From sequence record NC_054908.1: a stretch of DNA of 64,000 nt. One strand, given 5' to 3'. Positions 4,171 through 63,989 of this stretch are shown one piece after another (position 1 is the first letter of the stretch; each line of letters opens with the position of its first letter). The notes beneath the pieces are model-generated. The model ran no database searches. It was not told the DNA's origin and was given only the letters and a program-made list of their open reading frames with translations. A program made the translations under genes and the position numbers. The stretch is from Escherichia phage vB_EcoM_DalCa.

Positions 4171-4259
4171 GTTATCGAGTTGGTGCCATTATATACATCA
4201 TTTTCTGATTGTGTTTTGCGTGCTTTCAAAATGAAGAAAGGGGCCGAAGCCCCTTATGA

Positions 4260-6365: not shown

Positions 6366-6415
6366 AATATTTCCTCAGTATAAATATAGATATATTTATT
6401 ACATGGTATTTAGAC

Positions 6416-16773: not shown

Positions 16774-16799
16774 TTTGTGTTCCTCATGTTATGTAAGTA

Positions 16800-16850
16800 A
16801 GACTACTATAACACAACATGATGGACTTGTAAACTACATTTTGAACTTTT
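16800..16850 (-). promoter_or_regulatory. T4 early-type promoter (GTTTACA -35, 17-bp spacer, TATAGT -10) upstream of 16483..16773
   Basis: minus-strand GTTTACAAGTCCATCATGTTGTGTTATAGT; the -35 overlaps the stop codon of the upstream alt paralog. Confidence 0.6.
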
Positions 16851-18891
16851 TAGACATTCCGTTAATGTTAACCAAAGAAGCTAAGATTTGAGAAACTTCA
16901 TTTTCCTCTTCTTTTGATTCTTCTACAAGGAATTGATTAAATCCAGCCATTGGACGAACTTCACCAGTTTCCATTAGATGGTCTCCATCATATACTGATT
17001 CTTCTAATTGTTCAGAAGGAGGAACGATTGTACCTTCGATTAGATACTTGTTATAAGCAGTTTCTTTCATAAAGTACGTACTTACTTTATTAATCTTCAG
17101 TAAAATTCCACGTGGTAGAATAACTTCAGCTTCTGATGGAAATCCTGATAAATGACCCGGAACGATAACTTTGATTCGCTCAGCTCCTTTAATTACCATA
17201 CCCACGCTAGTTTCAGCATCTTCATTAGCATATGTAGAATGACTACCCATATGCATCAAATCTTCTGCATCAACAGAACCTTCTCCTTCGCCAGAAAATA
17301 CTGCACCGGAATCATCTAGAGCCATATAGTTTTTACCATGCTCACCGAAGATATTTGGTTTAAGTGATGTCGATACGAAGTTCTTGAAATAGAACATTTT
17401 ATTTTCAATATTGTGACGCAAAGTTTTAAAGGTAACTTCTTGTCCACGGTAAAGTGTAGTTCCTGGAGGAAGAACTGAACCTTTAGCGAATGCAGAATCC
17501 AGCGTCTCAATATGTTTAATAGCTCGTTCCATATATTCTTCACGGGTAGAATCTGGTTTACCCAAAAGGAACGAGTTCATTTCAACATATGAATCTGCAC
17601 AATAATCTTCAATTACGTCAGATTCAGCCTGAGTTAATCCTTTTGGAGTTACTTCAGTACTTGCATATTCATATGCCTGAGCGGCAGATTCATTAATCAA
17701 TTTATAAATGCCATTCATGACAAATTGAATAATAGCTGTCTTTTCATCTGGCGTAGCTTTAGAACCTTTAACTAAATCATTGACAATTTTCTTAATAACA
17801 TCAAAACTATTAGAAATATTAATATCAGCAAGATCGCTTAAAATTTTATCAGTTTTATAATCAAAGAATTCTTTATTCTTTAAATATTCTTGAGAACCTT
17901 GATATGTTATATCGCTCTGCAGCTTGATAGATGGATCGCGTAAACGTGCATGGGCCAATGCAATATGATTTCGGAAGTTTTCTAGTTCATAATCGTTAGA
18001 TTTAAAACGAGAAGCACTTCTCATACCACCGATAGCTCCTTTGCTAAAGTTTGAACCAATCTGAATAACGCCAGAGTTCATCGGACCTTCTGCTTTATAT
18101 ACCGGAACTTTAGATTCAAACTCTTGATATTTCTTGGCAGCAAAGCTATCACCCTGAAGTGAAGCATCAACAGTAGAATATTGAGCTTGTGCTGCTAATC
18201 GACGACTTATTTTAGTTTTCTGAATAACAGCTTGGTCCGTGCGCTTATCATTTTCTAAAGCAATAGAAGCAGCAACAGCGACAGCTTTAGGAACAGCATT
18301 TCCTGTTTTAACGTCTACATAAACATCACCGACCTTTGATTCAACTTTTGTGAATAACTCAGTTGAAATAGGAGGTACACCTGGAATGTCTTCTAAATTG
18401 GCATTTTTACGGTAAACCATAATATATGCATATTTCTTATCATAGTCCCAGATTTCCTTTAAAAGAACATATCGACCTGCTCCTTTAGTACGTACTAAAC
18501 GGTCAGCAATAACTTGCATTTGACGAGCTGCGCCATTTGTTTTACTTTTTAGTACGCGGAATAGGCATGCGTCGATTTTATACTGTTTCATTGTTTGAAG
18601 AGCAGTATCAAAAACGGCATTAATGACACCAATTGGATTTCCACCCAAGTTTCTAAGTTTAACCAGTGATAGTTTCTCATTAACACCTATCATTACGATA
18701 TGCATCATTTTATCGCCTGGCTTAACGTTTTTATTCGTATCACCACCAGAGGTGTATGTACAAAATCTAAATCCAGGAAGCACGCTTTCTTCGCCGGCTT
18801 GAATAGCAAAAATTTGTGGTATTTTATGCTTAGGATTTAAGTTAACAACCGGCGCCGAAGCGCCGTCAAATAATTCTGTAATAAGTTCCAT
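16834..18891 (-). CDS. Alt-like ADP-ribosyltransferase paralog (second, divergent full-length copy)
   Basis: 685-aa ORF; N-terminus MELITELFD and first ~230 aa similar to Alt; C-terminal region keeps TLYRG, FVSTSL and EAEVILPRG motifs. Confidence 0.85.
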   Translation of the reverse strand: MELITELFDGASAPVVNLNPKHKIPQIFAIQAGEESVLPGFRFCTYTSGGDTNKNVKPGDKMMHIVMIGVNEKLSLVKLRNLGGNPIGVINAVFDTALQTMKQYKIDACLFRVLKSKTNGAARQMQVIADRLVRTKGAGRYVLLKEIWDYDKKYAYIMVYRKNANLEDIPGVPPISTELFTKVESKVGDVYVDVKTGNAVPKAVAVAASIALENDKRTDQAVIQKTKISRRLAAQAQYSTVDASLQGDSFAAKKYQEFESKVPVYKAEGPMNSGVIQIGSNFSKGAIGGMRSASRFKSNDYELENFRNHIALAHARLRDPSIKLQSDITYQGSQEYLKNKEFFDYKTDKILSDLADINISNSFDVIKKIVNDLVKGSKATPDEKTAIIQFVMNGIYKLINESAAQAYEYASTEVTPKGLTQAESDVIEDYCADSYVEMNSFLLGKPDSTREEYMERAIKHIETLDSAFAKGSVLPPGTTLYRGQEVTFKTLRHNIENKMFYFKNFVSTSLKPNIFGEHGKNYMALDDSGAVFSGEGEGSVDAEDLMHMGSHSTYANEDAETSVGMVIKGAERIKVIVPGHLSGFPSEAEVILPRGILLKINKVSTYFMKETAYNKYLIEGTIVPPSEQLEESVYDGDHLMETGEVRPMAGFNQFLVEESKEEENEVSQILASLVNINGMSKKFKM

Positions 18892-18894
18892 GAT

Positions 18895-20949
18895 TTATCC
18901 TTGAACGAACTTGTAAGGCATGTTTGCAATATCTATACAAGACGCAATAATTCCAAGAGATGATTCTACTTTCTGTTTAACATTTGATGAAACAAATGAT
19001 GCAAAGTCAACTCTGTCTTCTACTTCAATATCACCTGTCATTGCAACCAATTCACCAGTTTCCATTAAATGGTCTCCGTCATAGATTACCGATTCGGTGA
19101 GCTCTTCCGTGGTCATAACTTCAGCTTGAATAAGCTTGTTGTTAGTTTTAACTGTTCCATCATTGTAAGATGCATCAGTTATTTTATTAACTTTGACCAT
19201 TAATCCACGTGGCAAAATAACTTCCATTTCATTTGAAGGCGCTAAACTTCCACCGGGTAAAACAACATTGACTTTATCAGCCCCAGTAATAACCCATCCA
19301 ATTCCGACTAAATTATCGCTAGAATTAACAAGCCCTTCATCATTTTTATCGATAGAAATGTTTAGACGCTTTTCATCTGGTAAAACACCAACAGCTGAAT
19401 CAGTCATCCAAGTACCAAAAATGTTTGGATATAATGATGTTGATACAAAATTTCTAAAATAAAAAACTCGATTTTTTACCAATGCTTCATATATTGAAGG
19501 TAACATTCGCTGTGAACGATATAAAGTAATACCTTTTGGCAATCGATCACCATTTTTAAAGGCTGAATCTAAATTATCAATAGCTTTTTCTATGTCAGAT
19601 GCTGTCAAAATACTTGTACGCTCATCTGGATTATATAATCCCAAAAGAGCATTATTTATGTCTACATATCCTGAACCTACGTATTCACGAATTCCGCGTT
19701 TTTGTGCTGGTGTGTATTTAGATGAATCTTTATTTTCGACTATAGGATGTAATGACCATCCAGCTGTAAGAGCATATCCACGTAATTCTCTTCGAATAAT
19801 CTTTGTTTTTATTGCATTCCAAGAATTTTGTACTAACTCATTTGCAGCATCTTGGTTTAAATGCGAATGTTTGTTAATATTTCTTTCAAACCAAGCACCT
19901 TTATATTTTTCTAAAGTATCATCGACGATAGAAGCAATAGTTTCTAAAGTTTTTATTGAAGTAATAGATTCTTTTCGTAATTTTTCTAAAGCTTTATTTT
20001 TTATTTCTGCATTAATAATGGATTCTTTATCTTCAGGAATTATAGAAGCTTCTCTGAATGCCATCCCAGCTGTAACACTGCTAAGAGCATTCTCTAGTGC
20101 AAATCCTGAAGTAGAAATTACCGTTAATTCATTAGAATCAGAAATTAAAGGCGCGTCCGCTGGTTTATTTAATTCTGCCGCTGAAGCCTCAAATTTTTGA
20201 AACATCGGTGTTTCAAATCTAGAAGATTCCAATGACTGACTTTGTGCAATTGCTCTACGGGAAATTTTAACTTTAACGATTACAGCTTGGTCAGAACGTT
20301 TATCATTTTCTTGTGCAATAGATGCTGCAATTGCCTCATTTTTGGTTACTTGAGCTCCGGTATCTTTATTGATATAAACATCACCGACCTTCGATTCAAC
20401 TTTAGTAAAGAGCTCGGTACTAATTTCCGGAACTCCTGGAATGTCTTCTAGTGATACATTTTTGCGATGTATAAGAATATATGCATACTTTTTATCATAA
20501 TCCCAGAGTTCCTTAAGAAGGACGTATCTGCCACCTGAACGACTACGGATAAGTCTATCAGCAATAACTTGAATTTGTCGAGCTTGACCAGCGGTTTTAG
20601 ACTTAAGAATACGAAGCATACAAGCATCAATTTTATACTGACGCATTGTTTGCATTGCAACAGTAAAAACTGAATTGATATAATTAATTGGGCTTGGACC
20701 AAGACCTTTTAATTTAGCAATTGAACCTTTAGCAGTTAATGTAAAAGGAACAATATGCATCATTTTATCGCCCATTTTTAAATCGCGATTAGTATCACCT
20801 CCAGATGTATAGGTACATAAACGAAAGCCTGGTTGTTCAATTGCATCATCAACATGAACTGAAAAAATTTGCGGTATTTTCTTCTTTGGATTTAAGTTTG
20901 TAATCGGAAGAGTAGTATCTTCGTCAAATAATTCTGTAATAAGTTCCAT
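18895..20949 (-). CDS. alt: Alt, ADP-ribosyltransferase packaged in the virion
   Basis: 684 aa from the second Met; recognised as T4 Alt along its length; motifs TLYRS, FVSTSL, EMEVILPRG. Confidence 0.92.
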   Translation of the reverse strand: MELITELFDEDTTLPITNLNPKKKIPQIFSVHVDDAIEQPGFRLCTYTSGGDTNRDLKMGDKMMHIVPFTLTAKGSIAKLKGLGPSPINYINSVFTVAMQTMRQYKIDACMLRILKSKTAGQARQIQVIADRLIRSRSGGRYVLLKELWDYDKKYAYILIHRKNVSLEDIPGVPEISTELFTKVESKVGDVYINKDTGAQVTKNEAIAASIAQENDKRSDQAVIVKVKISRRAIAQSQSLESSRFETPMFQKFEASAAELNKPADAPLISDSNELTVISTSGFALENALSSVTAGMAFREASIIPEDKESIINAEIKNKALEKLRKESITSIKTLETIASIVDDTLEKYKGAWFERNINKHSHLNQDAANELVQNSWNAIKTKIIRRELRGYALTAGWSLHPIVENKDSSKYTPAQKRGIREYVGSGYVDINNALLGLYNPDERTSILTASDIEKAIDNLDSAFKNGDRLPKGITLYRSQRMLPSIYEALVKNRVFYFRNFVSTSLYPNIFGTWMTDSAVGVLPDEKRLNISIDKNDEGLVNSSDNLVGIGWVITGADKVNVVLPGGSLAPSNEMEVILPRGLMVKVNKITDASYNDGTVKTNNKLIQAEVMTTEELTESVIYDGDHLMETGELVAMTGDIEVEDRVDFASFVSSNVKQKVESSLGIIASCIDIANMPYKFVQG

Positions 20950-21001
20950 CATAGCCTCTCTAGTGTTTATTCTATTTATAAAATTAAAGGCCCGAAGGCC
21001 T

Positions 21002-24618: not shown

Positions 24619-24956
24619 TAGAACCTCATCTGAAATCCGTGCGATTTAACATTACCACCACCAATGTCAGAAATATTAATTTCACTCGCAATTGAAGGGT
24701 CAATGTCAATTTCACGATTGAGTTTAATGATTGCTAGAGTATCACGTCCATTTACAGTACGGAACTCTAAAGGACATACTACATTAACGTAGTTTTTAAT
24801 CGATTCACTGGTAGGCTGCAAATGAGCAGGAAGGTCTTTAGGCGCCTTAGAGAAAACCACTTCACAGAAATTTTTGCGGGTATCAAAATAAGTAGTCATA
24901 AACATAGTATTTTCCTCAGTAAGGGGCCGAAGCCCCTGTTTTATTTTAAATATCAA
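24618..24956 (-). CDS. hypothetical protein
   Basis: 112-aa ORF; start may be internal. Confidence 0.55.
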   Translation of the reverse strand: MIFKIKQGLRPLTEENTMFMTTYFDTRKNFCEVVFSKAPKDLPAHLQPTSESIKNYVNVVCPLEFRTVNGRDTLAIIKLNREIDIDPSIASEINISDIGGGNVKSHGFQMRF

Positions 24957-25323
24957 ATTCGTTAAGAACTACATCAAAGATTGCTTCAAGATGCTCAGGT
25001 TTAGCTCTGTTACTCAGAATATGACGAATCCAAGTTTTAACCAGAAGCTTACGATTGACGCCATTCCAACAAGGATGAGTCCCTAAATCACGTTGACGAA
25101 AATCATCATCCAGAGCGATTTTAAAAGAAGAACCTTCTTTCGTGATTGAAACCGTAATGCCATTTTCAAATCGCATATAAACGTAGTTAGGAGTCATATA
25201 CTGTTCAATTTCGCATACTGATCCATTTTGATGTTTCCAAAGGCAAATAGTATCAATAGAACCTGCAATACCGTTAGAAACATATTTACGTTCAAAGTTA
25301 ATGTAGTTCATTTTATTCTCCAA
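24946..25323 (-). CDS. hypothetical protein
   Basis: 125-aa ORF. Confidence 0.6.
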   Translation of the reverse strand: MENKMNYINFERKYVSNGIAGSIDTICLWKHQNGSVCEIEQYMTPNYVYMRFENGITVSITKEGSSFKIALDDDFRQRDLGTHPCWNGVNRKLLVKTWIRHILSNRAKPEHLEAIFDVVLNEFDI

Positions 25324-25378
25324 GATGTTTAATTGCGGTACAGGTATATAATATCATATCCTGTACCAAAGTAAACAA

Positions 25379-25711
25379 TTATTTTACTAATTTCCAATGC
25401 TTCATGTCAAGTTTGCCAACTTTTTTCATCTTCTCAATTAAGCGTTCGGCACGCTGGCGAGCTGTAACATAATACCATTCACCCAATTCATTTTGTTCAA
25501 TTTTTCCAACGATTACTGTATTCAATTCATAAATCCAACCAGTAAAGAAATTATGAACTTGAATTGTAAAGGTGAAATCTGTTCCCATACCTTCTGTTGT
25601 TTCTACTTCAACAATATCACCTTCAACTGCCATTAAGAACCACATAGTTTCATCATATTTACCATTGAAGCATTTAGTTTTAACTGCAGCGTTCAGATTA
25701 ATCGTTTTCAT
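25379..25711 (-). CDS. hypothetical protein
   Basis: 110-aa ORF preceded by an early-type promoter at about 25735..25775. Confidence 0.6.
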   Translation of the reverse strand: MKTINLNAAVKTKCFNGKYDETMWFLMAVEGDIVEVETTEGMGTDFTFTIQVHNFFTGWIYELNTVIVGKIEQNELGEWYYVTARQRAERLIEKMKKVGKLDMKHWKLVK

Positions 25712-25821
25712 TTTATTCTCCTTTGTTTGTGTAAGATAATACTATCACAAAGGAACCATACTGTAAACAACTTTGTGCAATCTTTGGAAAATAAAAAAGG
25801 ACTCCCGAAGGAGTCCTCAAC

Positions 25822-29245: not shown

Positions 29246-29307
29246 TTCAATTTCCTCATTTGTTTTGGTAGAGCTATAATATCACAACTCTACCGTAAAG
29301 TAAACTA

Positions 29308-29613
29308 TTAAATTGCTTTGAATTCTGATGTCTGTGATTCAAAGCGAATGTCGCCTTTGATAACTAGCTCAGCATCAAGACCGAATACAACAATGATATG
29401 CGCGGAACCTGGATACAACGTAATGGCAATAGAATCCACCTGGTCTGGAAGCAAAGTGTTCAATACATGAGTCACTTGAGCGTGGATTCGAAGCTCAGCT
29501 GCATTATCAAGCTTTTCAAACATGTTATTAGCGATAATTTGGCTAAACACTACTTCTACGATTTTAGAGTAAGTCGGAAACATATTTACCTCACATAATT
29601 TTCTTCGAGCCAA
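29308..29613 (-). CDS. hypothetical protein
   Basis: 101-aa ORF preceded by an early-type promoter-like sequence at about 29270..29310 on the neighbouring unit. Confidence 0.6.
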   Translation of the reverse strand: MARRKLCEVNMFPTYSKIVEVVFSQIIANNMFEKLDNAAELRIHAQVTHVLNTLLPDQVDSIAITLYPGSAHIIVVFGLDAELVIKGDIRFESQTSEFKAI

Positions 29614-32550: not shown

Positions 32551-32611
32551 AAAGTCCTCATGTTATGTCAGTAAGTCTACTATAACACAACACGAGGGGT
32601 TTGTAAACAGC

Positions 32612-34199
<1,588 letters not shown>

Positions 34200-34226: not shown

Positions 34227-35405
34227 TTAAAAGTATTTTTTAAAACTCATCATAACTTTATCATCAACATCATTATCAATCTGTGCAACAAGATAAGATG
34301 ACAGTTCTACTTCTTGCGGCGCGGATTGAACATTATCAGAATTAAGGTATTCACGAATCCAAGGATATGGATGTTTAACCGGAGCATCGGTAATCGGGCA
34401 TGGAAGACCACACTGTTTCATACGAGATACAGTTAAGTAATCAATAAAGCTCCACATGCTATTTGTATTTAATCCAGGAACATCGCCATCTTTAAATAAA
34501 TGAACTGCCCAATCTTTTTCTTGGCGGTTAACTTCCATGAAAATATCAACTGCTTCTTGTTCACACTCTTGAGCAATTTTAACCCATTGATCGCCATCAG
34601 TACCAGATTGAAGTTGACGAATAATATATTGTGTACCTTTAAGATGAAGCTGCTCATCACGTGCAATGAACTTCATAATCTTGGCATTACCTTCCATGAT
34701 TTCCATGTTTTTATGGAAGTTAAAGGTACACGCAAAGGATACATAAAAACGAATAGCTTCCAGAGCATTGATAACGTGCAGACAGAGATAAAGCGACTTC
34801 ATCAGGTCTCGTTTACATTCTTCCAAATGAGTGAGACTGTTTGAATATGCTTCTAAATCATATTCATTTTCAGCAAAATAACTAAAGTTTTCTTTGGCGT
34901 TTTCCCAAATACGTGTCTTGTCCAGAACATCATCATAATAACGACCAATAGATTCAGCACGTTTCATGATAGCTTTATCTAATACAATCTCATCAAATAC
35001 CTTTGACGGATCAGTATAAAGATTTCGCATAATATGAGTGTATGAACGACTGTGAATAGTTTCACTAAAAGTCCATGTAGCAACCCATGTATCAAGGCTT
35101 GGGTCTGAAATCAATGACATAAGTACAGCAGACGGTGCACGACCCTGAATGCTATCCAGAAGTGATTGATACTTCAGATTATTAGTAAAAATATTCTGCT
35201 GATATTGAGGAAGCTTATTAAACTGTGCAGCATCCATCATTAAGTTTACTTCTTCAGGACGCCAGAAAAATGACAACTGCTTTTCGGTTAAATCTTCAAA
35301 AACTTTATGACGTTGAATATCATAACGCGCAATACCAAGACCTGAACCAAAAAACATAGGTTCTTTTAAAACATCAACTGGATTTGTATTAAAAACTGTG
35401 CTCAT
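34227..35405 (-). CDS. nrdB: ribonucleotide reductase small subunit NrdB, uninterrupted
   Basis: 392-aa continuous ORF. Confidence 0.92.
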   Translation of the reverse strand: MSTVFNTNPVDVLKEPMFFGSGLGIARYDIQRHKVFEDLTEKQLSFFWRPEEVNLMMDAAQFNKLPQYQQNIFTNNLKYQSLLDSIQGRAPSAVLMSLISDPSLDTWVATWTFSETIHSRSYTHIMRNLYTDPSKVFDEIVLDKAIMKRAESIGRYYDDVLDKTRIWENAKENFSYFAENEYDLEAYSNSLTHLEECKRDLMKSLYLCLHVINALEAIRFYVSFACTFNFHKNMEIMEGNAKIMKFIARDEQLHLKGTQYIIRQLQSGTDGDQWVKIAQECEQEAVDIFMEVNRQEKDWAVHLFKDGDVPGLNTNSMWSFIDYLTVSRMKQCGLPCPITDAPVKHPYPWIREYLNSDNVQSAPQEVELSSYLVAQIDNDVDDKVMMSFKKYF

Positions 35406-35456
35406 AAATTTTCCGCTTAGTTAATAGTTGGTGACTCGTCCGTGAGTCAAATTATA

Positions 35457-37721
35457 TCATAATTTACAGGATGAACAATCTTCAGCTTTTGGAGTTTCTA
35501 TTTCATAATCATCAGTACCAGAACCGTCACGGGTATTATGATAATAGAAATTTTTTCCGCCAAAATACCAGAAATACAAAAGGTCATCAATCATTATTGA
35601 CATTGGAACCTTGCCTTTAGGGAAGATTTGGGGGTCATAGTATGTATTCGCCGAAGCTGATTGACAAACCCATTTCAGCATAATAGCTACCTGCGTAAGA
35701 TAAGGTTTATTACCTTTCTTAGCTAATTTCCATGTATAATCATAAAGGTCTATGTTATGCTCAATATTGGGCACGACTTGATTAAAGGAGCCCTCTTTTG
35801 ATTCTTTAACAGAGACTGGTCCACGTGGAGGCTCGATACCGTTTGTACTGTTAGAAACTTGGGAAGATGACTCACATGGCATAAGTGCTGATAGTGTGCT
35901 ATTACGGATGCCAAAGAGCTTAAGGTCTTCCCGCAGCGACGACCAGTCACAAACGTATTTTGGAGCTGCGATTTGGTCAATCTTTTTATTGTACCAGTCG
36001 ATAGGTAATTCGCCTCGAGACCAACGAGTGTCTGAATAATATTCACAAGGTCCTTTTTCTTTGGCGAGTTTAATGGATGCTTTAATAAGTCCATACTGTA
36101 ATCTCTCAAATAGTTCATGTGTTAAATCGTTAGCATCTTCATAAGAAGCAAAGTTACTTGCCAACCAAGCTGCATAGTTAGTAACACCTACACCGAGGTT
36201 ACGACGCTTTTTAGCTTTTTCTGCTTCAGGAACTGGATATCCTTGGTAATCCAAAAGATTATCAAGAGCACGAACCTGGACTTCTGCCAATTCATTAATT
36301 TTATCTTGGTCTTGCCAGTCAAAATTATCCAGTACGAATGCAGAGAGAGTACACAATCCAATTTCAGCATCAGGACTATTCACATCATTTGTTGGAATAG
36401 CAATTTCACAGCACAAGTTACTCTGACGAATAGGTGCCTTTTCACGAATAAACGGAGTATAGTTATTCGTATTATCAATGAACTGTACATAAATCCTTGC
36501 TGTTCCTGAACGTTCAGTCATGAGCAATTCAAATAGTTCACGGGCTTTAATACGCTTTTTACGAATATTAGGGTCTTTTTCTGCTGCTTCGTATAATTCA
36601 CGGAAACGGTCTTGGTCTTTAAAATAAGAATAATACAGCTCTCCACCCATTTCATGTGGACTGAACAAAGTAATGTAATCGTTCTTTCCGAATCGTTCCA
36701 TCATCAAATCATTCAGTTGAACACCATAATCCATATGACGAATGCGGTTTTCTTCTACGCCTTTGTTATTTTTCAAAACGAGAAGATTTTCAACTTCCAA
36801 ATGCCAAATAGGATAATAAGCAGTAGCAGCGCCGCCACGAATTCCGCCCTGTGAGCATGATTTAACAGCAGTCTGAAAATGTTTCCAAAAAGGAATAACA
36901 CCAGTATGACGCACTTCACCCATGCCAATCTTAGAACCTTCGGCACGAATCATACCAACGTTAATACCAATTCCAGCACGTTTGGAGATATATTCAACAA
37001 TTGAAGCAGAAGCCTTATTAATAGACTTTAATGAATCACCTGCCTCAATAACAACGCATGAACTAAACTGCCGAGTTGGAGTACGGCAACCAGCCATAAT
37101 AGGAGTTGGTAATGAAATCTGTCGAGTAGATACTGCTTCATAAAAACGAATAACATGTTTTAATCTATCAACAGGTTCATCTTGATGCAATGCCATTCCA
37201 ATAGTCATAAATGCAAACTGAGGAGTTTCATAAATTTGACCAGTGGTTTTATCTTTAACTAGATATTTTTCTTTTAATTGCATCGCCCCGGAATAAGTAA
37301 ATTCCATATCCCGTTCGTGCTTAATTTTTGATTCTAAAAATGTAATTTCTTCTGCTGAATATTTTGACAACAATTCAGGGTCATATTTACCTTCATTTAC
37401 ACAGTAAGAAATATGGTCAATAAATGAACGTGGTTCATACTGCCCATAAACATGCTTACGAAGAGCGAACATTAGACAACGTGCAGCTACATATTGATAA
37501 TCAGGCTCTTCAACCGAAATAGAATTCGCAGCGGCCTTAATGACAATAGTCTGAATATCATCAGTTGTCATTCCATCACGGAGATAAGATTTAATATTTT
37601 CATATAATTCATAAGGATCTACTGATGTTCCCTCAGCTGCCCAAGATAAAACTTTAATAATTTTTTGTGGGTCAAAGCTCTGAGAAACACCACTACTTTT
37701 GATAACATTAATTAATTGCAT
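35457..37721 (-). CDS. nrdA: ribonucleotide reductase large subunit NrdA
   Basis: 754-aa ORF; active-site NLCCEI; recognised as T4 NrdA. Confidence 0.95.
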   Translation of the reverse strand: MQLINVIKSSGVSQSFDPQKIIKVLSWAAEGTSVDPYELYENIKSYLRDGMTTDDIQTIVIKAAANSISVEEPDYQYVAARCLMFALRKHVYGQYEPRSFIDHISYCVNEGKYDPELLSKYSAEEITFLESKIKHERDMEFTYSGAMQLKEKYLVKDKTTGQIYETPQFAFMTIGMALHQDEPVDRLKHVIRFYEAVSTRQISLPTPIMAGCRTPTRQFSSCVVIEAGDSLKSINKASASIVEYISKRAGIGINVGMIRAEGSKIGMGEVRHTGVIPFWKHFQTAVKSCSQGGIRGGAATAYYPIWHLEVENLLVLKNNKGVEENRIRHMDYGVQLNDLMMERFGKNDYITLFSPHEMGGELYYSYFKDQDRFRELYEAAEKDPNIRKKRIKARELFELLMTERSGTARIYVQFIDNTNNYTPFIREKAPIRQSNLCCEIAIPTNDVNSPDAEIGLCTLSAFVLDNFDWQDQDKINELAEVQVRALDNLLDYQGYPVPEAEKAKKRRNLGVGVTNYAAWLASNFASYEDANDLTHELFERLQYGLIKASIKLAKEKGPCEYYSDTRWSRGELPIDWYNKKIDQIAAPKYVCDWSSLREDLKLFGIRNSTLSALMPCESSSQVSNSTNGIEPPRGPVSVKESKEGSFNQVVPNIEHNIDLYDYTWKLAKKGNKPYLTQVAIMLKWVCQSASANTYYDPQIFPKGKVPMSIMIDDLLYFWYFGGKNFYYHNTRDGSGTDDYEIETPKAEDCSSCKL

Positions 37722-38255: not shown

Positions 38256-39112
38256 ATTGCCATTTTCCCTTTAATTGCTGGATGCGATTCATAATTTTCA
38301 AGGATAAAATCTTTCGGTTTCATGTATTCAGTTAACCAGTAAAGCTGTGTTTCGGTGTCACAATTTCCAAACTCTATAGGCCAATCAATTTTAAGTTCAC
38401 ATAGTTCTTTAGGCTCACGACGTAAAATTTCTTTACATTGCTCAGTATGATTCATATAGATGTGAGTATTACCACCAGAAAATATCAAATCTCCTGGGAT
38501 AAGATTACACATCTTAGCCACAATATGCGTCAAGGCAGCGTACGAGGCAATGTTGAATGGCAATCCCAAGAAAACATCTACACTTCTTTGGTACCATTGT
38601 AAATCAAGATAACCATTACGCACATTAAACTGATAGAACATATGACAGGGCGGTAATGCCATTTGATTGATTTCAGCTGGATTCCATGCTGAAACGATTT
38701 GACGTCGATCAGTTGGTAATTTTTTAATACGATCAATAGTTTCAACTAATTGATCCACACCGCCGAAATCACGCCATTGTTTACCGTATATAGGACCAAG
38801 TTCACCACTATGATATCCTAGGTCTTTAGCCTGGTTTTCATAGTTATCGTCCCAAATAGTTTTACCTTGAATAAGACTACCATGTGTGCGAAGACGTAAA
38901 TCATTAACATTGGTAGAACCGGAAATAAACCATAGAAGCTCAGCAATGCATGCATTCCACGCAAGCTTCTTAGTTGTTACCGCAGGAAAACCTTTAGTTA
39001 AATCCCAACGTAATTTAGTACCGAACAAAGCAATTGTTCCTGTGCCTGTTCGGTCATCGGTTTCATAGCCATTTTCAAAAATGTCTTTAATTAAATCTTG
39101 GTATTGTTTCAT
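38252..39112 (-). CDS. td: thymidylate synthase, uninterrupted
   Basis: 286-aa continuous ORF; active-site region ALPPCH. Confidence 0.93.
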
Positions 39113-40607: not shown

Positions 40608-40745
40608 TTTATTCTCCTTAGCAAGCTTTAATCAAAAGATATAAACAGACCAACATAACTGCTGCCATAATATAAGGTGCGAACATTTTCTTTTCTCCAT
40701 TAGTTTTGATAGGGTAATAGTATCACACTACTACCCTTCTGTAAA

Positions 40746-41111
40746 CTACTTTTTGAAAGTTTTTCGCAAAAGTTCAATGATTTCATCTACATTGTTTTCG
40801 TCAACAATGCAGTGAATTTTTGTTACGCCAGAAACTTTGTCTTTGACTTCATCTTCTTCAGAAGTCGGTTCTTTATACTCACGAAAACAATGAAATTCGT
40901 CTTCACAAACGTTAAAGTAAAAATGCTTTCCATTTGCGCATTCAATGTGTTTTATTACTCTAAATCCATCAACAAAGAAAGCTTCTTTAACTTCAAACCA
41001 TCCGCCATTTTCTTGAATAATTTTAACTATTGCTGAATTAGAACGTGGGCGATAATTAATAAATGTATCAATAAGTCTTGGAACAAGTTCATACTTTTTA
41101 CCGATATACAT
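40746..41111 (-). CDS. hypothetical protein (frd.3 position)
   Basis: 121-aa ORF preceded by an early-type promoter at about 40705..40750. Confidence 0.6.
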   Translation of the reverse strand: MYIGKKYELVPRLIDTFINYRPRSNSAIVKIIQENGGWFEVKEAFFVDGFRVIKHIECANGKHFYFNVCEDEFHCFREYKEPTSEEDEVKDKVSGVTKIHCIVDENNVDEIIELLRKTFKK

Positions 41112-41383: not shown

Positions 41384-41421
41384 ATTATTTTCCTCTTTAA
41401 TCATCAGCAGTATTGCCGATA

Positions 41422-41482
41422 GTTGTATAGTACCATGGAAGGACAAGGATGTAAACCGTTTTGTGAAAAAATTTTTGAAATA
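41422..41482 (-). promoter_or_regulatory. T4 early-type promoter (UP element, GTTTACA -35, -10 TACTATAC) for 41156..41383
   Basis: member of a near-identical ~65-bp repeat family (also 58270..58330 and 61914..61972). Confidence 0.65.
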
Positions 41483-41486
41483 AAAA

Positions 41487-41505
41487 GGGGACCTCTAGGG
41501 TCCCC
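41487..41505 (-). terminator. hairpin (GGGGACC-TCTAG-GGTCCCC) downstream of gene 32
   Basis: 7-bp GC stem directly after the gene 32 stop. Confidence 0.55.
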
Positions 41506-42436: not shown

Positions 42437-42535
42437 TTTTATTTCCTTTTTAATTTAATTAACAGTTGGTGCTATGACGATGTATGACCTCATAGCTGGT
42501 CAGTGAGGTAATTATAATCTATTTATAATAAGCAA

Positions 42536-44697: not shown

Positions 44698-44759
44698 ATG
44701 AACCTCGTTCAATTAGTGAGATTTCTATTATATACTATCTAAATCTTAAAGTAAACAGG

Positions 44760-44767
44760 TATAAATA
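44760..44767 (+). promoter_or_regulatory. T4-type late promoter TATAAATA upstream of gene 34
   Basis: exact TATAAATA about 35 nt upstream of the gene 34 ATG, followed by AGGAG Shine-Dalgarno. Confidence 0.7.
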
Positions 44768-44801
44768 CTTATTATTGAAAACACAATAGGAGCCCGGGAG
44801 A

Positions 44802-47800
44802 ATGGCCGAGATTAAAAGAAAGTTCAGAGCAGAAGATGGTCTGGACGCAGGTGGCGATAAAATAATCAACGTAGCTTTAGCTGATCGTACCGTAGGAACT
44901 GACGGTGTTAACGTTGATTACTTAATTCAAGAAAACACAGTTCAGCAATATGATCCAACTCGTGGATATTTAAAAGATTTTGTAATCATTTATAATAATC
45001 GTTTTTGGGCAGCAACGGATAATATTCCAAAACCTGCTGGAAATTTTAATAGAATTCGTTGGAAAGCATTACGTACTGATGCTGTATATACAACCGTATC
45101 ATCTGGACCGTATCAATTAAAATCCGGAGAAGCAATTTCAGTAGATACATCAGTTGGTAATGACATTGAGTTTACTTTACCACCTTCTCCGCTCGATGGA
45201 GAAACAGTAATAATTCAAGATATCGGTGGAAAACCTGGTATAAATCAGGTTAAAATAAGTTCTTCAAATCAGAGCATTGTTAATTTTAGAGGTGAACAAG
45301 TACGTTCAGTTTTAATGACTCATCCAAAGTCACAGATGGTATTCATTTTTAATAATCGTTTGTGGCAAATGTATATTGCTGATTATAGCAGAGAAGCTGC
45401 GATTGTTACTCCATCGACTGCGTATCAAGCACAATCTAATGATTTTATCGTACGTAGATTTACTTCTGCTGCACCAATTAATGTTAAACTTCCGAGATTT
45501 GCTAATCATGGCGATATTATTAATTTCGTTGATTTAGATAAACTGAATCCACTTTATCATACAATTGTTACTACATACGATGAAACGACTTCAGTACAAG
45601 AAGTTGGAACTCATTCCATTGAAGGCCGTACATCGATTGACGGTTTCTTGATGTTTGACGATAATGAGAAATTGTGGAGATTGTTTGACGGGGATAGTAA
45701 AGCACGTTTACGCATTATAACAACTAATTCAAATATTCGTCCAAATGAAGAAGTCATGGTATTTGGCGCGAATAATGGAACAACCCAAACAATTGAACTT
45801 CAGCTTCCGACTGATATTTCTGTTGGTGATACTGTTAAAATTTCCATGAATTACATGAGAAAAGGACAAACAGTTAAAATCAAAGCTGCTGGTGAAGATA
45901 AAATTGCTTCTTCAGTTCAATTGCTGCAATTCCCAAAACGTTCAGAATATCCGCCTGAAGCTGAATGGGTAACAGTTCAAGAATTAGTTTTTAACGGTGA
46001 AACTAATTATGTTCCAGTTTTACAACTTGCTTATATAGAAGATTCTGATGGAAAATACTGGGTTGTACAGCAAAACGTTCCAACAGTTGAAAGAGTCGAT
46101 TCTTTAAATAATTCTACTAGAGCAAGATTAGGCGTAATTGCTTTAGCTACACAAGCTCAAGCAAATGCTGATTTAGAAAATTCTCCGCAAAAAGAATTGG
46201 CAATTACTCCAGAAACGTTAGCTAATCGTACTGCTACTGAAACTCGCAGAGGTATTGCAAGAATAGCAACTACTGCTCAAGTGAATCAGAACACCACATT
46301 CTCTTTTGCAGATGACCTTATCATCACTCCTAAAAAGCTGAATGAAAGAACTGCTACAGAAACTCGCAGAGGTGTCGCTGAAATTGCTACGCAGCAGGAA
46401 ACTAATACAGGTACTGATGATACTACAATCATTACTCCTAAAAAGCTTCAAGCTCGCCAAGGTTCTGAATCATTATCTGGTATTGTAACTTTTGTATCTA
46501 CCGCAGGAGCTACTCCAGCTTCTAGTCGTGAATTAAATGGTACGAATGTTTATAATAAAAACACTAATAATTTAGTTGTTTCACCTAAAGCTTTGGATCA
46601 GTATAAAGCTACTCCAACGCAACAAGGCGCAGTAATTTTAGCAGTTGAAAGTGAAGTAATTGCTGGACAAAGCCAAGAAGGATGGGCAAATGCGGTTGTA
46701 ACGCCAGAAACGTTACATAAAAAGACATCAACTGACGCAAGAATTGGTTTAATTGAAATTGCTACACAAAGTGAAGTTAATACAGGAACTGATTATACTC
46801 GCGCAGTCACTCCTAAAACTTTAAATGACCGTAGAGCAACTGAAAGTTTAAGTGGTATAGCTGAAATTGCTACGCAAGTTGAATTCGACGCAGGCGTCGA
46901 CGATACTCGTATCTCTACACCATTAAAAATTAAAACCAGATTTAATAGTACTGATCGTACTTCTGTTGTTGCTCTATCTGGATTAGTTGAATCAGGAACT
47001 CTCTGGGACCATTATACCCTTAATATTCTTGAAGCAAATGAGACACAGCGTGGTACACTTCGTGTAGCTACACAAGTTGAAGCTGCTGCAGGAACATTAG
47101 ATAATGTTTTAATAACTCCTAAAAAGCTTTTAGGTACTAAATCTACTGAAGCACAGGAAGGTGTCATTAAAGTTGCAACTCAGTCTGAAACTGTGGCTGG
47201 AACGTCAGCAAATACTGCTGTATCTCCAAAAAATTTAAAATGGATTGTGCAGAGTGAACCTACTTGGGCAGCGACTACTGCGATAAGAGGTTTTGTTAAA
47301 ACTTCGTCTGGTTCAATTACATTCGTTGGTAATGATACAGCTGGTTCAACACAGCCATTAGAATCATATGAGAAAAATGGTTATGCAGTATCACCATATG
47401 AATTAAATCGCGTATTAGCAAATTATTTGCCATTAAAAGCAAAAGCCGTAGATAGTAATTTATTAGATGGTCTAGATTCGCTCCAGTTCATTCGTAGGGA
47501 CATTGCACAAACAGTTAATGGTTCACTAACCTTAACCCAACAAACGAATCTGGGTGCCCCTCTTGTATCATCTAGTACTGCTACATTCGGTGGATCAGTT
47601 TCAGCAAATAGTACATTAACTATTTCTAATACTGGAACGGCAACTCGTCTGATTTTTGAGAAAGGACCTCAAACTGGAACAAACCCGGCTCAAACGATGA
47701 CAGTCAGAGTGTGGGGAAATCAATTTAGTGGGGAATCAGACACAACACGTTCTACCGTATTTGAAGTTAGTGATGAAACGTCTAGTCATTTTTATTCTCA

Positions 47801-55279: not shown

Positions 55280-55285
55280 TAACTA

Positions 55286-55444
55286 TACCACTCAATTAGT
55301 TGACTTTGTTATAATATCATCAGACACTTGATTTGTAAACTGGTCTGTGTTATTTTCTTCAAAAATTTTTTCTACGAATTCCTTGAACGACTCGCGTTCC
55401 TGAGCTACATTATGCTCGATTACCATTTCAAGATTATGACTCAT
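55286..55444 (-). CDS. small hypothetical protein (52 aa) between arn and asiA
   Basis: manual translation MSHNLEMVIEHNVAQERESFKEF...; ATG overlaps the arn stop (ATGA); below track length cutoff. Confidence 0.4.
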
Positions 55445-57892: not shown

Positions 57893-57904
57893 TTTAATCT
57901 CCGT

Positions 57905-57950
57905 TTCAGTTCATTTATTTGATAGGTCTATAGTATCATGTTTAAAGCAG
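57905..57950 (-). promoter_or_regulatory. T4 early-type promoter upstream of motA (GTTTACT -35, GATACTAT -10)
   Basis: minus-strand AAAAAAGTGTTTACTTCTGCTTTAAACATGATACTATAG. Confidence 0.55.
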
Positions 57951-57997
57951 AAGTAAACACTTTTTTGCACTCTTTTTCAAGAGCTCTAATAAAGTAC

Positions 57998-58225
57998 TTA
58001 CTTAATGTTCAGATTACGAACTTCGATTTCGTCTTCATGGGCAAAATCAAACTGTTTGAATTCTGTGTCACCTTTAAATTTAAAAATCATTGTGAAGAAA
58101 GTCAGAACACCAGGTTTTTCTTCACGAACTCCACAGATATCATATTCAATACCATCTACAACCAGTTTGTTAGCAGTCGGAGCATTTTTAGCTTTAACGA
58201 TTTCGTTTTCGATTTTAAATTTCAT
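57998..58225 (-). CDS. hypothetical protein (motA.1 position)
   Basis: 75-aa ORF with GGAGA Shine-Dalgarno. Confidence 0.65.
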   Translation of the reverse strand: MKFKIENEIVKAKNAPTANKLVVDGIEYDICGVREEKPGVLTFFTMIFKFKGDTEFKQFDFAHEDEIEVRNLNIK

Positions 58226-58269
58226 TTTTTGTATCTCCGGGTTGTTTGTTTCAGTTCATTTATTTGATA

Positions 58270-58330
58270 GTTGTATAGTACCACAGTATGCTTTGGTTGT
58301 AAACCGTTTTGTGAAAAAATTTTTGAAATA
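58270..58330 (-). promoter_or_regulatory. T4 early-type promoter (UP element, GTTTACA -35, 17-bp spacer, -10)
   Basis: near-identical to 41422..41482; -35 at 58298..58304, -10 at 58272..58280. Confidence 0.65.
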
Positions 58331-58335
58331 AAAAA

Positions 58336-58356
58336 GGGAGAGCCGAGGCTCTCCCT
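58336..58356 (-). terminator. hairpin (GGGAGAGCC-GA-GGCTCTCCC) after the gene 52 unit
   Basis: 9-bp GC-rich inverted repeat just downstream of the small ORF that follows gene 52. Confidence 0.6.
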
Positions 58357-61385: not shown

Positions 61386-61627
61386 TTTCTGTTCCTCCGT
61401 AGTTGATAGAGTAATAATACCACAGAGGAACAGTCTTGTAAACAACTTTTTAAAAATATTCGTAATAAATGTGAATACCAACTACTACCGCTGAAACCTG
61501 TGCAACCCACCACGCACAAGCAATAAGTACAGAATTCAAAATTTTCATAATAACCTCATCACAAAAGTAAATGTTAAACAAATTACTGGAATACTAATTA
61601 ACCAAACAAAACACCACCACAGTGAAC

Positions 61628-61891
61628 TCATAGCTCAATCTCAACGATTTCCAAGTGTTTTTGTTTTATTGCCTTTTTAACACAATCATGGACTAAATAT
61701 GACCATGAATCATTATATTCTCCATTAACTAATCGTTGGAGATCTTCACGTGATGATAAGTAAGGTTGATCTGATTCCCATTTTGATAAAAATACTGCAG
61801 TAAAAATATCTCCTTCATCTGTAGTTGAAGTCGTAAATGCAATAAATTCACCGGTAATTTTATGTTTAGCGTAATAAAATTTAAATTTCAT
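61628..61891 (-). CDS. hypothetical protein
   Basis: 87 aa from the internal Met with GGAGGAG Shine-Dalgarno; the longer track ORF runs into a promoter. Confidence 0.6.
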   Translation of the reverse strand: MKFKFYYAKHKITGEFIAFTTSTTDEGDIFTAVFLSKWESDQPYLSSREDLQRLVNGEYNDSWSYLVHDCVKKAIKQKHLEIVEIEL

Positions 61892-61913
61892 TTTTACTCC
61901 TCCGTAGCTGATA

Positions 61914-61972
61914 GTTGTATAGTACCACGGTCCTTGTAGTATGTAAACGGTTTTGTGAAAATTTTTTAAATG
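61914..61972 (-). promoter_or_regulatory. T4 early-type promoter (third member of the repeat family)
   Basis: -35 TGTAAAC (plus-strand spelling) at 61942..61948, -10 at 61915..61924. Confidence 0.6.
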
Positions 61973-62523
61973 GAAAGATACCATCCATTGTAGTTGCTTT
62001 TTCTTACAACCTTACGAAGGTCTTCTCTGTCACCTATGAACTTCGGAGTGTACTGGATAACACCTGGATGAATTTCTTTAGTGTTGAATATAATTATACA
62101 GTCAGCGACTTGATGATTTAGAATGGGCCCTAGATTTATTCCAGAACCGTATGGATACTCTCCGCTGCATCCTGTTGTTACAGAAATCCAACGTGAGCCA
62201 GTTTGATGTGTCTTAACTTCTACACGAAGCCCACAGTATTTTGGATGTGCTAAAACATCCCACGCGTATGTATATGGATCATCGACATCTTCTTGACCTT
62301 TATTAACATACCCGCTTAGCCAATCTGCTACAAAAAACTCTGCGTATACAGCAATACGACATCTTTCAATAACTTCTGCTTTATCCTGGTTCGGGTTTTG
62401 TTTTAAAGAGTATCTTGCAGTATCAGCAATTTTGACCTTCATTTCACTAGTCAAGTCACTGTTCGATAGGGTAAATGTCGGAATCTGAAATAGTCTCTGT
62501 AAACCCGGATTCGTTTTCTGCAT
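61966..62523 (-). CDS. denB: endonuclease IV
   Basis: 185-aa ORF at the T4 denB position and length. Confidence 0.8.
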   Translation of the reverse strand: MQKTNPGLQRLFQIPTFTLSNSDLTSEMKVKIADTARYSLKQNPNQDKAEVIERCRIAVYAEFFVADWLSGYVNKGQEDVDDPYTYAWDVLAHPKYCGLRVEVKTHQTGSRWISVTTGCSGEYPYGSGINLGPILNHQVADCIIIFNTKEIHPGVIQYTPKFIGDREDLRKVVRKSNYNGWYLSI

Positions 62524-62785
62524 TTAGACTTTCCTTTTTACCACTGAGATAAGCGTTATATACTTTAAGAGTGCCGTAATAAATTCGGTCATTTTCATCT
62601 AAAGACTCGCGGTCAAGTTCATCGAGCTCCTTTTTATCCATGACTATAACATCATTACAGTAAAGAAACCCAAGTTTTTCGTGACCAAACTCAAATTTAT
62701 TACAGTACACAATATTAGCGTGATGATTTCCGTGCAGTTTAATCTCTTTTATGTCGGAATCACCGATATTCATACAATAAATCAT
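62456..62785 (-). CDS. hypothetical protein (denB.1 position)
   Basis: 109-aa ORF; 5' end overlaps denB. Confidence 0.55.
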   Translation of the reverse strand: MIYCMNIGDSDIKEIKLHGNHHANIVYCNKFEFGHEKLGFLYCNDVIVMDKKELDELDRESLDENDRIYYGTLKVYNAYLSGKKESLNAENESGFTETISDSDIYPIEQ

Positions 62786-62823
62786 AATTTTTCCTTAAAA
62801 CAAAAGGGCCGAAGCCCCTTATT

Positions 62824-63018
62824 TTATTTGAATTGCGCAATTCTTTTTTCTAAACAATCTGCATAAGATTTCATTGAGATGAACTGTGAAAGCAGTAATT
62901 CTTGCTCAACTTCATTAATCGTTAGAAACTTTGTACTTTCTAAAAATTTGCTCAGTGCATTAATTTTGAGCATTAATTGATCGTATTCTTCTTTTACTCG
63001 TGCTTGATAACCTAACAT
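62824..63018 (-). CDS. hypothetical protein
   Basis: 64-aa ORF flanked by GGGCCGAAGCCC hairpins. Confidence 0.55.
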   Translation of the reverse strand: MLGYQARVKEEYDQLMLKINALSKFLESTKFLTINEVEQELLLSQFISMKSYADCLEKRIAQFK

Positions 63019-63050
63019 AATTTTCCTTAATATGATAAGGGCCGAAGCCC

Positions 63051-63989
63051 TTATTTAAATTGTTCAGTAACGTCTTCAACTACTTCGTATTGGCAGGTAC
63101 GCATTTTAGCGTCGTTGTAATCAATCGGAATTGATACCACATCGCGAGGATGCACTTTAACTTTTACGACTCGGCTGGTTGAACTGCCAAAGTGACGAAT
63201 ATAAGATTTAGAACACACATGCAGACCACGAGAACAAGTTTGTGTATCATCGTCATTCACGCGAGTACGTGGCATTTTAACTACTTTACCCGGACTGTTA
63301 TCAAAGGTATTTGAGTGACAGTCAAAGTAATTGCTGCGAACTACTTTCCAAGCATAGAAGTAGCCATCTTCTGTAATTTCAATATCGTTTGCTACCAAGA
63401 AATCAAAGAGTCGAGATACCGCTTTTTGGCTTGGGTTTTCCAGCAGATTTTCCAAGAACGGAAAATAAAATTCAAAGTTTTCGCCTTTTTCCATCGAGTC
63501 AAGAATACGATCAACCAAACCAGACCGCAATTCAATATTTTGATAGAACAAGCTTCCACCTTCAATTCGAACATCGCCGGAAATATATTTTTCAACAGCG
63601 CGACGAACATTAATTTTTTGTGCTGCTTCTTCCAGCTTATCCGCTACAAGCAGATTAAGAATTTCCTGGAAGTTTGAATGAGTATTAGGAGTTGCGTTAT
63701 AAGTTACACCGTCAACAGTAATTGAAATGAATTTTTTAGATGCATTCCAAATAATGTCAGATTTAGCAACTGGAGCAATAACTGCATCGCTATTAACTTT
63801 AACTGTAATATCACCGCTAATAGTAACTTTAGGGCGTTTAGCTTCTTCAGCATTTTTCAAAACACGACGGATTGTGTCAACCGATACATCCTTCCAATAA
63901 GCTAATTCCTGCTGAGTGTAATTACCACTTGAATACAGTTTAACAATTTCAGCTTGTTCGTTTTTGGTCAGGCATTTAATATTGTACAT
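63051..63989 (-). CDS. rIIB: rIIB
   Basis: 312-aa ORF recognised as T4 rIIB; the start codon lies 11 nt from the window end. Confidence 0.92.
   Translation of the reverse strand: MYNIKCLTKNEQAEIVKLYSSGNYTQQELAYWKDVSVDTIRRVLKNAEEAKRPKVTISGDITVKVNSDAVIAPVAKSDIIWNASKKFISITVDGVTYNATPNTHSNFQEILNLLVADKLEEAAQKINVRRAVEKYISGDVRIEGGSLFYQNIELRSGLVDRILDSMEKGENFEFYFPFLENLLENPSQKAVSRLFDFLVANDIEITEDGYFYAWKVVRSNYFDCHSNTFDNSPGKVVKMPRTRVNDDDTQTCSRGLHVCSKSYIRHFGSSTSRVVKVKVHPRDVVSIPIDYNDAKMRTCQYEVVEDVTEQFK

Follow-up and report, generated by a model that had tools for sequence, protein, structure and literature searches.

The repeated blocks that we describe here in the genome of Escherichia phage vB_EcoM_DalCa (NC_054908.1) are very probably early promoters of the T4 class, some of which are arranged as PeSL cassettes, and they would also act as ectopic homology patches. 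This reading is drawn from sequence comparison over a window of 64,000 nucleotides, i.e. the whole stretch of DNA that was analysed. The window belongs to a Tequatrovirus, being 98.8% identical to several isolates, e.g. vB_EcoM-fFiEco06, and it is collinear with T4 105.2-168.9 kb at 91-97% identity. The promoters and related features are listed in Table 1, and each promoter is denoted below by the position of the G that opens its -35 element.

Thirteen probable early promoter sites on the minus strand

A near-identical block at three loci had been proposed from the sequence alone, and all three copies are real. A repeat search of the window assigns 41418-41491, 58266-58339 and 61910-61983 to one repeat family, in which the second and third copies are 86% and 70% identical to the first; the starts at 41418 and 61910 had each been placed one base off, and that at 58266 was correct. 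When read on the minus strand, the first two copies (cassette A at 41456 and cassette B at 58304) share 38 consecutive identical bases, TTTTTATTTCAAAAATTTTTTCACAAAACGGTTTACA, comprising the T-tract, the UP element and the -35 element, and 18 identical bases, TGGTACTATACAACTATC, are common to A, B and cassette C (61948). The 14-nt spacer between the conserved blocks is unrelated among the three. The two-block pattern CACAAAACS-GTTTACA-N14-TGGTACTATACAACTATC, searched in the window with up to 3 mismatches, matches A, B and C only, with 0 mismatches in each, and at the same stringency it has no match in 100 dinucleotide-preserving shuffles. All three cassettes carry AAAAATTTTTT at approximately -57 to -47, followed by an A-rich stretch to -38; presumably, AAAAATTTTTT fits the E. 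coli UP-element consensus as the distal UP subsite.

The seven looser copies of the original prediction all exist, with the -35 G at 16834, 25768, 29305, 32608, 40746, 57958 and 61443, and three additional copies beyond that list are found at 25376, 44756 and 55340. The motif search across the window that had been suggested as a check returns 13 sites, all on the minus strand: GTTTAC-N17-19-TAnnnT has 13 minus-strand and 0 plus-strand matches in the window, where first-order Markov simulations give 1.3-1.5 expected matches per strand. In a two-block position-weight scan the 13 sites score 29-59, with the next best site at 11 and none above 10 on the plus strand, although the weight matrix was trained on those same 13 sites, so that the scan gives their separation and is no independent test. 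A generic sigma-70 hexamer scan of this A/T-rich window (36% GC) yields no enrichment over shuffles. The discriminating signal is the extended T4 consensus, the hexamers alone being insufficient.

All 13 sites point in the direction of the early genes, and they are conserved in ~500 related genomes. The -35 element is TTTACA or TTTACT and the -10 element TAnnnT, separated by 17 nt at 11/13 sites and by 16 nt at the other two, and an extended -10 TGn is present at every site except 44756. No Rfam family reached its gathering score in the window.

Orthologous sites at the same position and on the same strand are found for 12/13 promoters in T4, 13/13 in fFiEco06, 11/13 in T6 and 9/13 in T2. The T4 record itself names an early promoter, Pe133295, between cd.2 and cd.3, which corresponds to 29305. 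Another T4 promoter, Pe148.6 upstream of rnh, has been mapped by primer extension and is active 1 min after infection (PMC6024815). The T4 orthologue of 44756 has its -35 element at 150763 and a -10 element ending at 150734, and the +1 predicted from it coincides with T4 150,727, where the published schematic of Pe148.6 begins (PMC6024815). Taken together, the T4-like character of the phage, the TTTACA-17-TAnnnT architecture, TGn at 12 of the 13 sites, the A/T-rich UP element of the three main copies and the orthology to T4 at 12 of 13 bear out the earlier reading of the repeats as T4 early promoters.

T4 early promoters combine a UP element with -35, TGn and -10 motifs, and they out-compete host promoters (Hinton 2010, PMC2988021). 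In DalCa, unmodified E. coli sigma-70 RNA polymerase would likewise bind these sites immediately after infection through four contacts, i.e. the A/T-rich UP element (with the alpha C-terminal domains), the -35 GTTTACA, the extended -10 TGn and the -10 TAnnnT. Transcription is then predicted to start ~7 nt downstream of the -10 element on the minus strand, and the transcript would carry a short 5'UTR with a strong Shine-Dalgarno sequence, followed by the first early gene.

Table 1. Early promoters, cassettes and related features of the window (-35 and -10 intervals are window positions)
Feature	Span	Strand	Parts	Family, orthology or role
Early promoter upstream of alt.-3	16774..16865	-	-35 16829-16834; -10 16805-16810	family D7
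Early promoter upstream of gene 30.7	25312..25405	-	-35 25371-25376; 16-nt spacer; -10 25348-25353; GGAGAATAAAATG	
Terminator hairpin (25797-25818) and early promoter upstream of gene 30.8	25712..25818	-	-35 25763-25768; -10 25739-25744; GGAGAATAAAATG Shine-Dalgarno and start	family D4
Early promoter, ortholog of Pe133295	29246..29335	-	-35 29300-29305; -10 29276-29281	T4 Pe133295
Early promoter upstream of alc	32551..32640	-	-35 32603-32608; -10 32579-32584	family D7
Early promoter between frd.2 and frd.1	40687..40780	-	-35 40741-40746; -10 40717-40722	family D4
Cassette A, between gene 32 and frd.3	41384..41505	-	gene 32 terminator hairpin 41487-41505; UP element ~41457-41486; -35 GTTTAC 41451-41456; 17-nt spacer; TGG and -10 TACTAT 41427-41432; predicted +1 near 41420; 5'UTR with GAGG Shine-Dalgarno, ending at frd.3 ATG (41383)	orthologous to T4 146875
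Early promoter upstream of rnh	44698..44790	-	-35 44751-44756; -10 TATAAT 44727-44732; no TGn	ortholog of T4 Pe148.6
Early promoter upstream of asiA, inside asiA.1	55280..55370	-	-35 55335-55340; -10 55311-55316	T4 ortholog 161211
Cassette M, directly upstream of motA	57893..57997	-	weak stem GCTCTT/AAGAGT; -35 57953-57958; 16-nt spacer; -10 57930-57935; 5'UTR with 23 nt repeated from cassette B 5'UTR (CTATCAAATAAATGAACTGAAAC), then GGAG; motA ATG 57892	repeat family D14; no ortholog in T4, T2, T6
75-aa ORF (orf75)	57998..58225	-		cassette B-driven; part of promoter-plus-ORF module
Cassette B, after motA.1	58226..58356	-	hairpin 58335-58356; UP element; -35 58299-58304; -10 58275-58280; predicted +1 near 58268; 5'UTR with GGAG Shine-Dalgarno preceding the 75-aa ORF	orthologous to T4 motA promoter 163673, same spacer
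Early promoter, ndd.5/ndd.4 region	61386..61470	-	-35 61438-61443; -10 61414-61419; GGAGG Shine-Dalgarno	family D4; T4 ortholog 166807
Cassette C, after denB	61892..61983	-	weak AT-rich stem; UP element; -35 61943-61948; -10 61919-61924; predicted +1 near 61912; GGAGGAG Shine-Dalgarno; 87-aa ORF 61628-61891 downstream	orthologous to T4 167086
Sites of the mobile-gene and intron absences relative to T4 named in the text	1290-1351, 6402-6422, 34729, 35405-35461, 38560-38565, 42499-42535			

Hairpins, Shine-Dalgarno sequences and driven genes

A strong GC hairpin followed by a T-tract lies directly upstream of 3/13 sites, namely 41456 (-14.3 kcal/mol), 58304 (-18.6 kcal/mol, z=-4.6) and 25768 (-16.4 kcal/mol, z=-4.3), and in each case the terminator T-tract continues into the UP element. 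We infer that the hairpins are efficient terminators, and at these three sites the promoter would be joined to the upstream gene's intrinsic terminator, forming an insulated terminator-promoter-Shine-Dalgarno unit (PeSL). The stems at 61948 (cassette C) and 57958 (cassette M) have energies no better than those of shuffled sequence, and no convincing terminator-like stem-loop was found upstream of the other sites. The earlier statement that several copies are immediately preceded by a GC hairpin therefore applies to three sites, with the remaining ones lacking a strong hairpin. At six of these other sites the upstream ORF extends to within a few bases of the -35 element, so that the UP region there is coding; the UP element of 16834 overlaps the 3' end of an alt paralogue.

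A Shine-Dalgarno sequence and an ATG are located 28-50 nt past the -10 element at 13/13 sites, and the Shine-Dalgarno sequence is GGAG at 7/13. GGAG is also the core motif reported for RegB endoribonuclease sites in T4 early mRNAs, and RegB may by analogy cut at the GGAG sequences of these cassettes. The genes driven are alt.-3, 30.7, 30.8, a 175-aa ORF, alc, a 22-aa ORF before frd.1, frd.3, rnh, asiA, motA, the 75-aa ORF, an ndd.4-like ORF and the 87-aa ORF. The original prediction, in which each copy is followed by a Shine-Dalgarno sequence and a small accessory ORF, is thus correct for the translation signals at all sites, but the description of the genes goes too far, since they include motA, asiA, alc and rnh. 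The ORF downstream of cassette A matches the Pfam family Phage_FRD3 (E=8e-40), and no Pfam match was obtained for the 75-, 87- and 175-aa ORFs, the last of which is an extra ORF inserted before cd.2 and driven from 29305.

The 22-aa ORF (40618-40686, minus strand) has a GGAG Shine-Dalgarno sequence and lies directly past the promoter at 40746. Conservation of its start region extends to T4, T6 and fFiEco06, where the ORF is unannotated, and T2 joins the promoter straight to frd.1.

Hairpins are also repeated elsewhere in the window. The same GC hairpin (AAGGGGCCGAAGCCCCTT, with a tetraloop) occurs at 4238-4268, 24921-24951 and 62803-62833, and the repeated terminator stems could serve as homology patches at these three distant sites. 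Furthermore, a 46-nt unit composed of a terminator hairpin (GGGGCTTCGGCCC stem), a Shine-Dalgarno sequence and an ATG is found twice, at 62783-62828 and 63016-63061, 233 nt apart. The two units flank a 64-aa ORF (62824-63018), and T4 has a single unit and no such ORF. From its sequence, the arrangement looks like a module exchange through a stem-loop/Shine-Dalgarno repeat without a promoter.

Spacer alleles and gene indels at the cassettes

The 14-nt spacer between the conserved blocks is unconstrained and therefore marks ancestry. The spacer of cassette A is TCCTTGTCCTTCCA in the window, T2 and fFiEco06, differs from it by one base in T6, and is AGCATAAAGCTTTA in T4. The latter allele sits in cassette B of fFiEco06, ~17 kb away. 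Per pair, 14 free bases would be identical by chance with a probability of ~4e-9, and repeat-induced misassembly would not yield a double switch within 70 nt.

We collected 54 family-I cassettes from five genomes, IMG/VR and metagenome contigs and assigned them to six positions, A-F, by upstream context; the contribution of IMG/VR is small (7 Tequatrovirus stretches). Position A has four spacer alleles among the 54 cassettes, and each of them also occurs at B, C, D or F, either identical at 14/14 bases or with one base different. For each of the four A alleles, at least 4 isolate genomes match a 68-nt diagnostic query at 100%. The records per allele at ≥80% coverage (328, 132, 101 and 90) overlap and are upper bounds only; since their total exceeds the number of records, the exact-match examples were used instead.

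As judged from the aligned alleles, at least 5 ectopic transfers would be needed to account for those common to A, B, C, D and F, and short-patch gene conversion through the conserved flanks appears to be the simplest account of the sharing. Given the length and near-identity of the conserved blocks, and given that short homologies suffice for recombination in T4-type phages, the cassettes may well double as ectopic homology patches. In such a process, gene conversion of short patches would carry spacer alleles from cassette to cassette, and a crossover between neighbouring cassettes, or between shared 5'UTR/Shine-Dalgarno segments, would lead to gain or loss of the small gene in between. On balance, we lean toward the view that the spacer is a natural barcode, according to which the dispersed early promoters of T-even phages repeatedly swap short patches by ectopic gene conversion and evolve as one family.

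The spacer of the promoter at 61443 (61414-61443), which belongs to another sub-family, is AGACTGTTCCTCTG, and the same sequence is the spacer of a family-I cassette located elsewhere, in metagenome contig ULRM01008302.1. This identity indicates that spacer sharing crosses sub-families.

Gene gain and loss can be read at several cassettes. In the window the order is B, the 75-aa ORF, M and motA, whereas B lies directly before motA in T4, T2 and T6. The module of orf75 and M has a 23-nt perfect direct repeat on its two sides, one copy in each of the two 5'UTRs. The full B-orf75-M arrangement is represented by 136 records that cover ≥80% of the query, while T4, T2 and the other sampled relatives with lower coverage match only the ends of the query, without orf75 and M. 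A clean B x M excision junction was found in none of the sequenced phage genomes searched, the best matches being the window-type arrangement in two pieces. T2 lacks gene 30.8, with the junction lying within GGAGAATAAAATGAA, which is common to the two flanking cassettes. At cassette C, ACAACTATCA is followed by one of at least three different ORFs, depending on the phage, and the same ORF is preceded by two different 5'UTRs. Such junctions inside cassettes, together with the same spacer alleles at non-orthologous cassettes, support the original idea that the repeats are recombination substrates.

Relative to T4, T6, T2 and fFiEco06, ~7 of ~25 distinct indel events touch the cassette zones, which account for 3.2% of the sequence, although this enrichment is partly expected since an indel the size of a gene is bound to have its ends in intergenic DNA, the place of promoters. 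Some of the indels next to cassettes are, from their junction sequences, microhomology deletions and not events between cassettes, and two are read in this way. The deletion in the T4 alt paralogue went through a 9-nt microhomology, CTAAAAAGT, one end lying in a UP element; past cassette C, T4 has lost the interior of the 87-aa ORF and keeps an 8-codon remnant. Many other indels of the window represent gain or loss of homing endonucleases and introns (segD, segE, I-TevIII, mobE, I-TevI, segG) or divergence of tail fibres.

Several observations accompany these comparisons. Relative to T4, several elements are missing from the window: segD, segE, the nrdB intron carrying I-TevIII, nrdB.1/mobE, the td intron carrying I-TevI, and segG. 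It contains two full-length tandem alt-like ADP-ribosyltransferase genes (16854-18543 and 18544-20952), of which T4 keeps the second as fragments (alt.-1/alt.-2). The 8-codon remnant of the window ORF 61628-61891, ATGAAAATCGCTGAGATTGAACTATGA, is located at T4 ~166,997-167,040, upstream of ndd.6, and the overlap of its stop codon with the ndd.6 ATG suggests that translational coupling may have been preserved. On the plus strand, 46203-47128 contains internal direct repeats of 30-68 nt with spacings that are multiples of 3 (108, 120, ...), in the proximal long-tail-fibre gene (gp34 homologue); these are protein repeat units.

The resemblance among the cassettes might instead originate only from selection toward one strong-promoter optimum, with no role of recombination and with the adjacent indels simply reflecting intergenic gene boundaries. 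The consensus of T4 early promoters is indeed unusually long (PMC2988021), the sites keep their orthologous positions in T4, T2, T6 and the window, and some of the neighbouring indels are microhomology events. The unrelated spacers of A, B and C in the window are also what would be expected if only the functional blocks were constrained. However, convergence fails to explain identical 14-nt spacers at non-orthologous cassettes of different phages, because spacers are otherwise free to differ. Moreover, the sub-families share bases beyond the general consensus, as in 16834 and 32608 with 89% identity over 54 nt, and the orf75 module is bounded by its perfect repeat. We consider selection alone to be an unlikely explanation.

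It is far less probable still that the repeats are att sites or ends of mobile elements. Automated 'attR' misc_features do lie on cassette C in T6 (AP018814, 46590-46629) and beside cassette B in T2 (AP018813, 43301-43320), but an att label is the expected output of a repeat-based prophage tool for any direct repeat, and the T2 and T6 labels are probably artefacts of such a tool, i.e. misannotations. DalCa is virulent and a myovirus of the T4 type, and in four annotated relatives nothing over the region is named as an integrase. The repeats, moreover, are promoters that all face the same way at conserved intergenic sites, and they show neither terminal inverted repeats nor target-site duplications. 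As for chance similarity in A/T-rich intergenic DNA, to which the unenriched hexamer scan at 36% GC might point, it is ruled out by the shuffles, none of the 100 matching the block; the distribution of the sites, 13 on the minus and 0 on the plus strand, and the conservation in ~500 related genomes also speak against it.

Meaning and relation to known systems

Early promoters of the T4 type set the first minute of infection, and their arrangement as cassettes would offer a mechanism for gain, loss and re-wiring of small host-takeover genes. For annotation, the analysis adds 13 predicted early transcription starts and three predicted terminators. If the spacers are exchanged as we suppose, promoter strength could be re-tuned through spacer swaps while the flanking genes remain untouched, and the spacer barcode would provide a simple way to quantify ectopic gene conversion across the ~500 sequenced Tequatrovirus genomes.

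The promoter class is textbook T4 biology and the recombination hypothesis is the published PeSL model, both of which are already known. The DalCa sites share with the T4 early promoters (Hinton 2010, PMC2988021) the UP element, the -35 GTTTAC(A/T), the 17-nt spacer, TGn and the -10 element, as well as their orientation, their positions (gene 32/frd.3, upstream of motA, denB/ndd.6) and the early genes driven. Nothing essential differs, except that the spacer allele at gene 32/frd.3 is not that of T4, and DalCa has, beyond the T4 set, one promoter (57958) and some small ORFs.

With regard to the PeSL model, Arbiol 2010 (PMC2839356) describes a composite cassette of stem-loop, early promoter and Shine-Dalgarno sequence that is clustered by variable ORFs, and proposes its role in modular shuffling, mini-circles included. 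Comeau 2014 (PMC4122927) extends the model to T4/PST with the consensus TTTACW-N17-TAYWAT, which the sites here match, and gives an example in the ndd region, within the homologous stretch of the window. The cassettes are alike in having a stem-loop/terminator (at three sites here), an early promoter, a Shine-Dalgarno sequence and a start codon, and in being repeated, by variable ORFs and at indel junctions. ORF variation of the PeSL type between close relatives is seen here in orf75 with M, the loss of gene 30.8 in T2, the 175-aa ORF (orf175) and the replacements downstream of C. In contrast, a strong stem-loop is present at only 3/13 sites, so that most sites are plain early promoters and not full PeSLs. 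The exchange of spacer alleles between dispersed cassettes was not found stated in the accessible parts of the two PeSL papers (PMC2839356, PMC4122927); it is an incremental addition to the model.

A further comparison can be made with the 'linker' sequences of the Botstein type and the morons of lambdoid phages, in which short conserved regulatory sequences likewise flank exchangeable modules with their own expression signals. Morons are thought to insert by illegitimate recombination, whereas in the DalCa cassettes the regulatory sequence itself would provide the homology.
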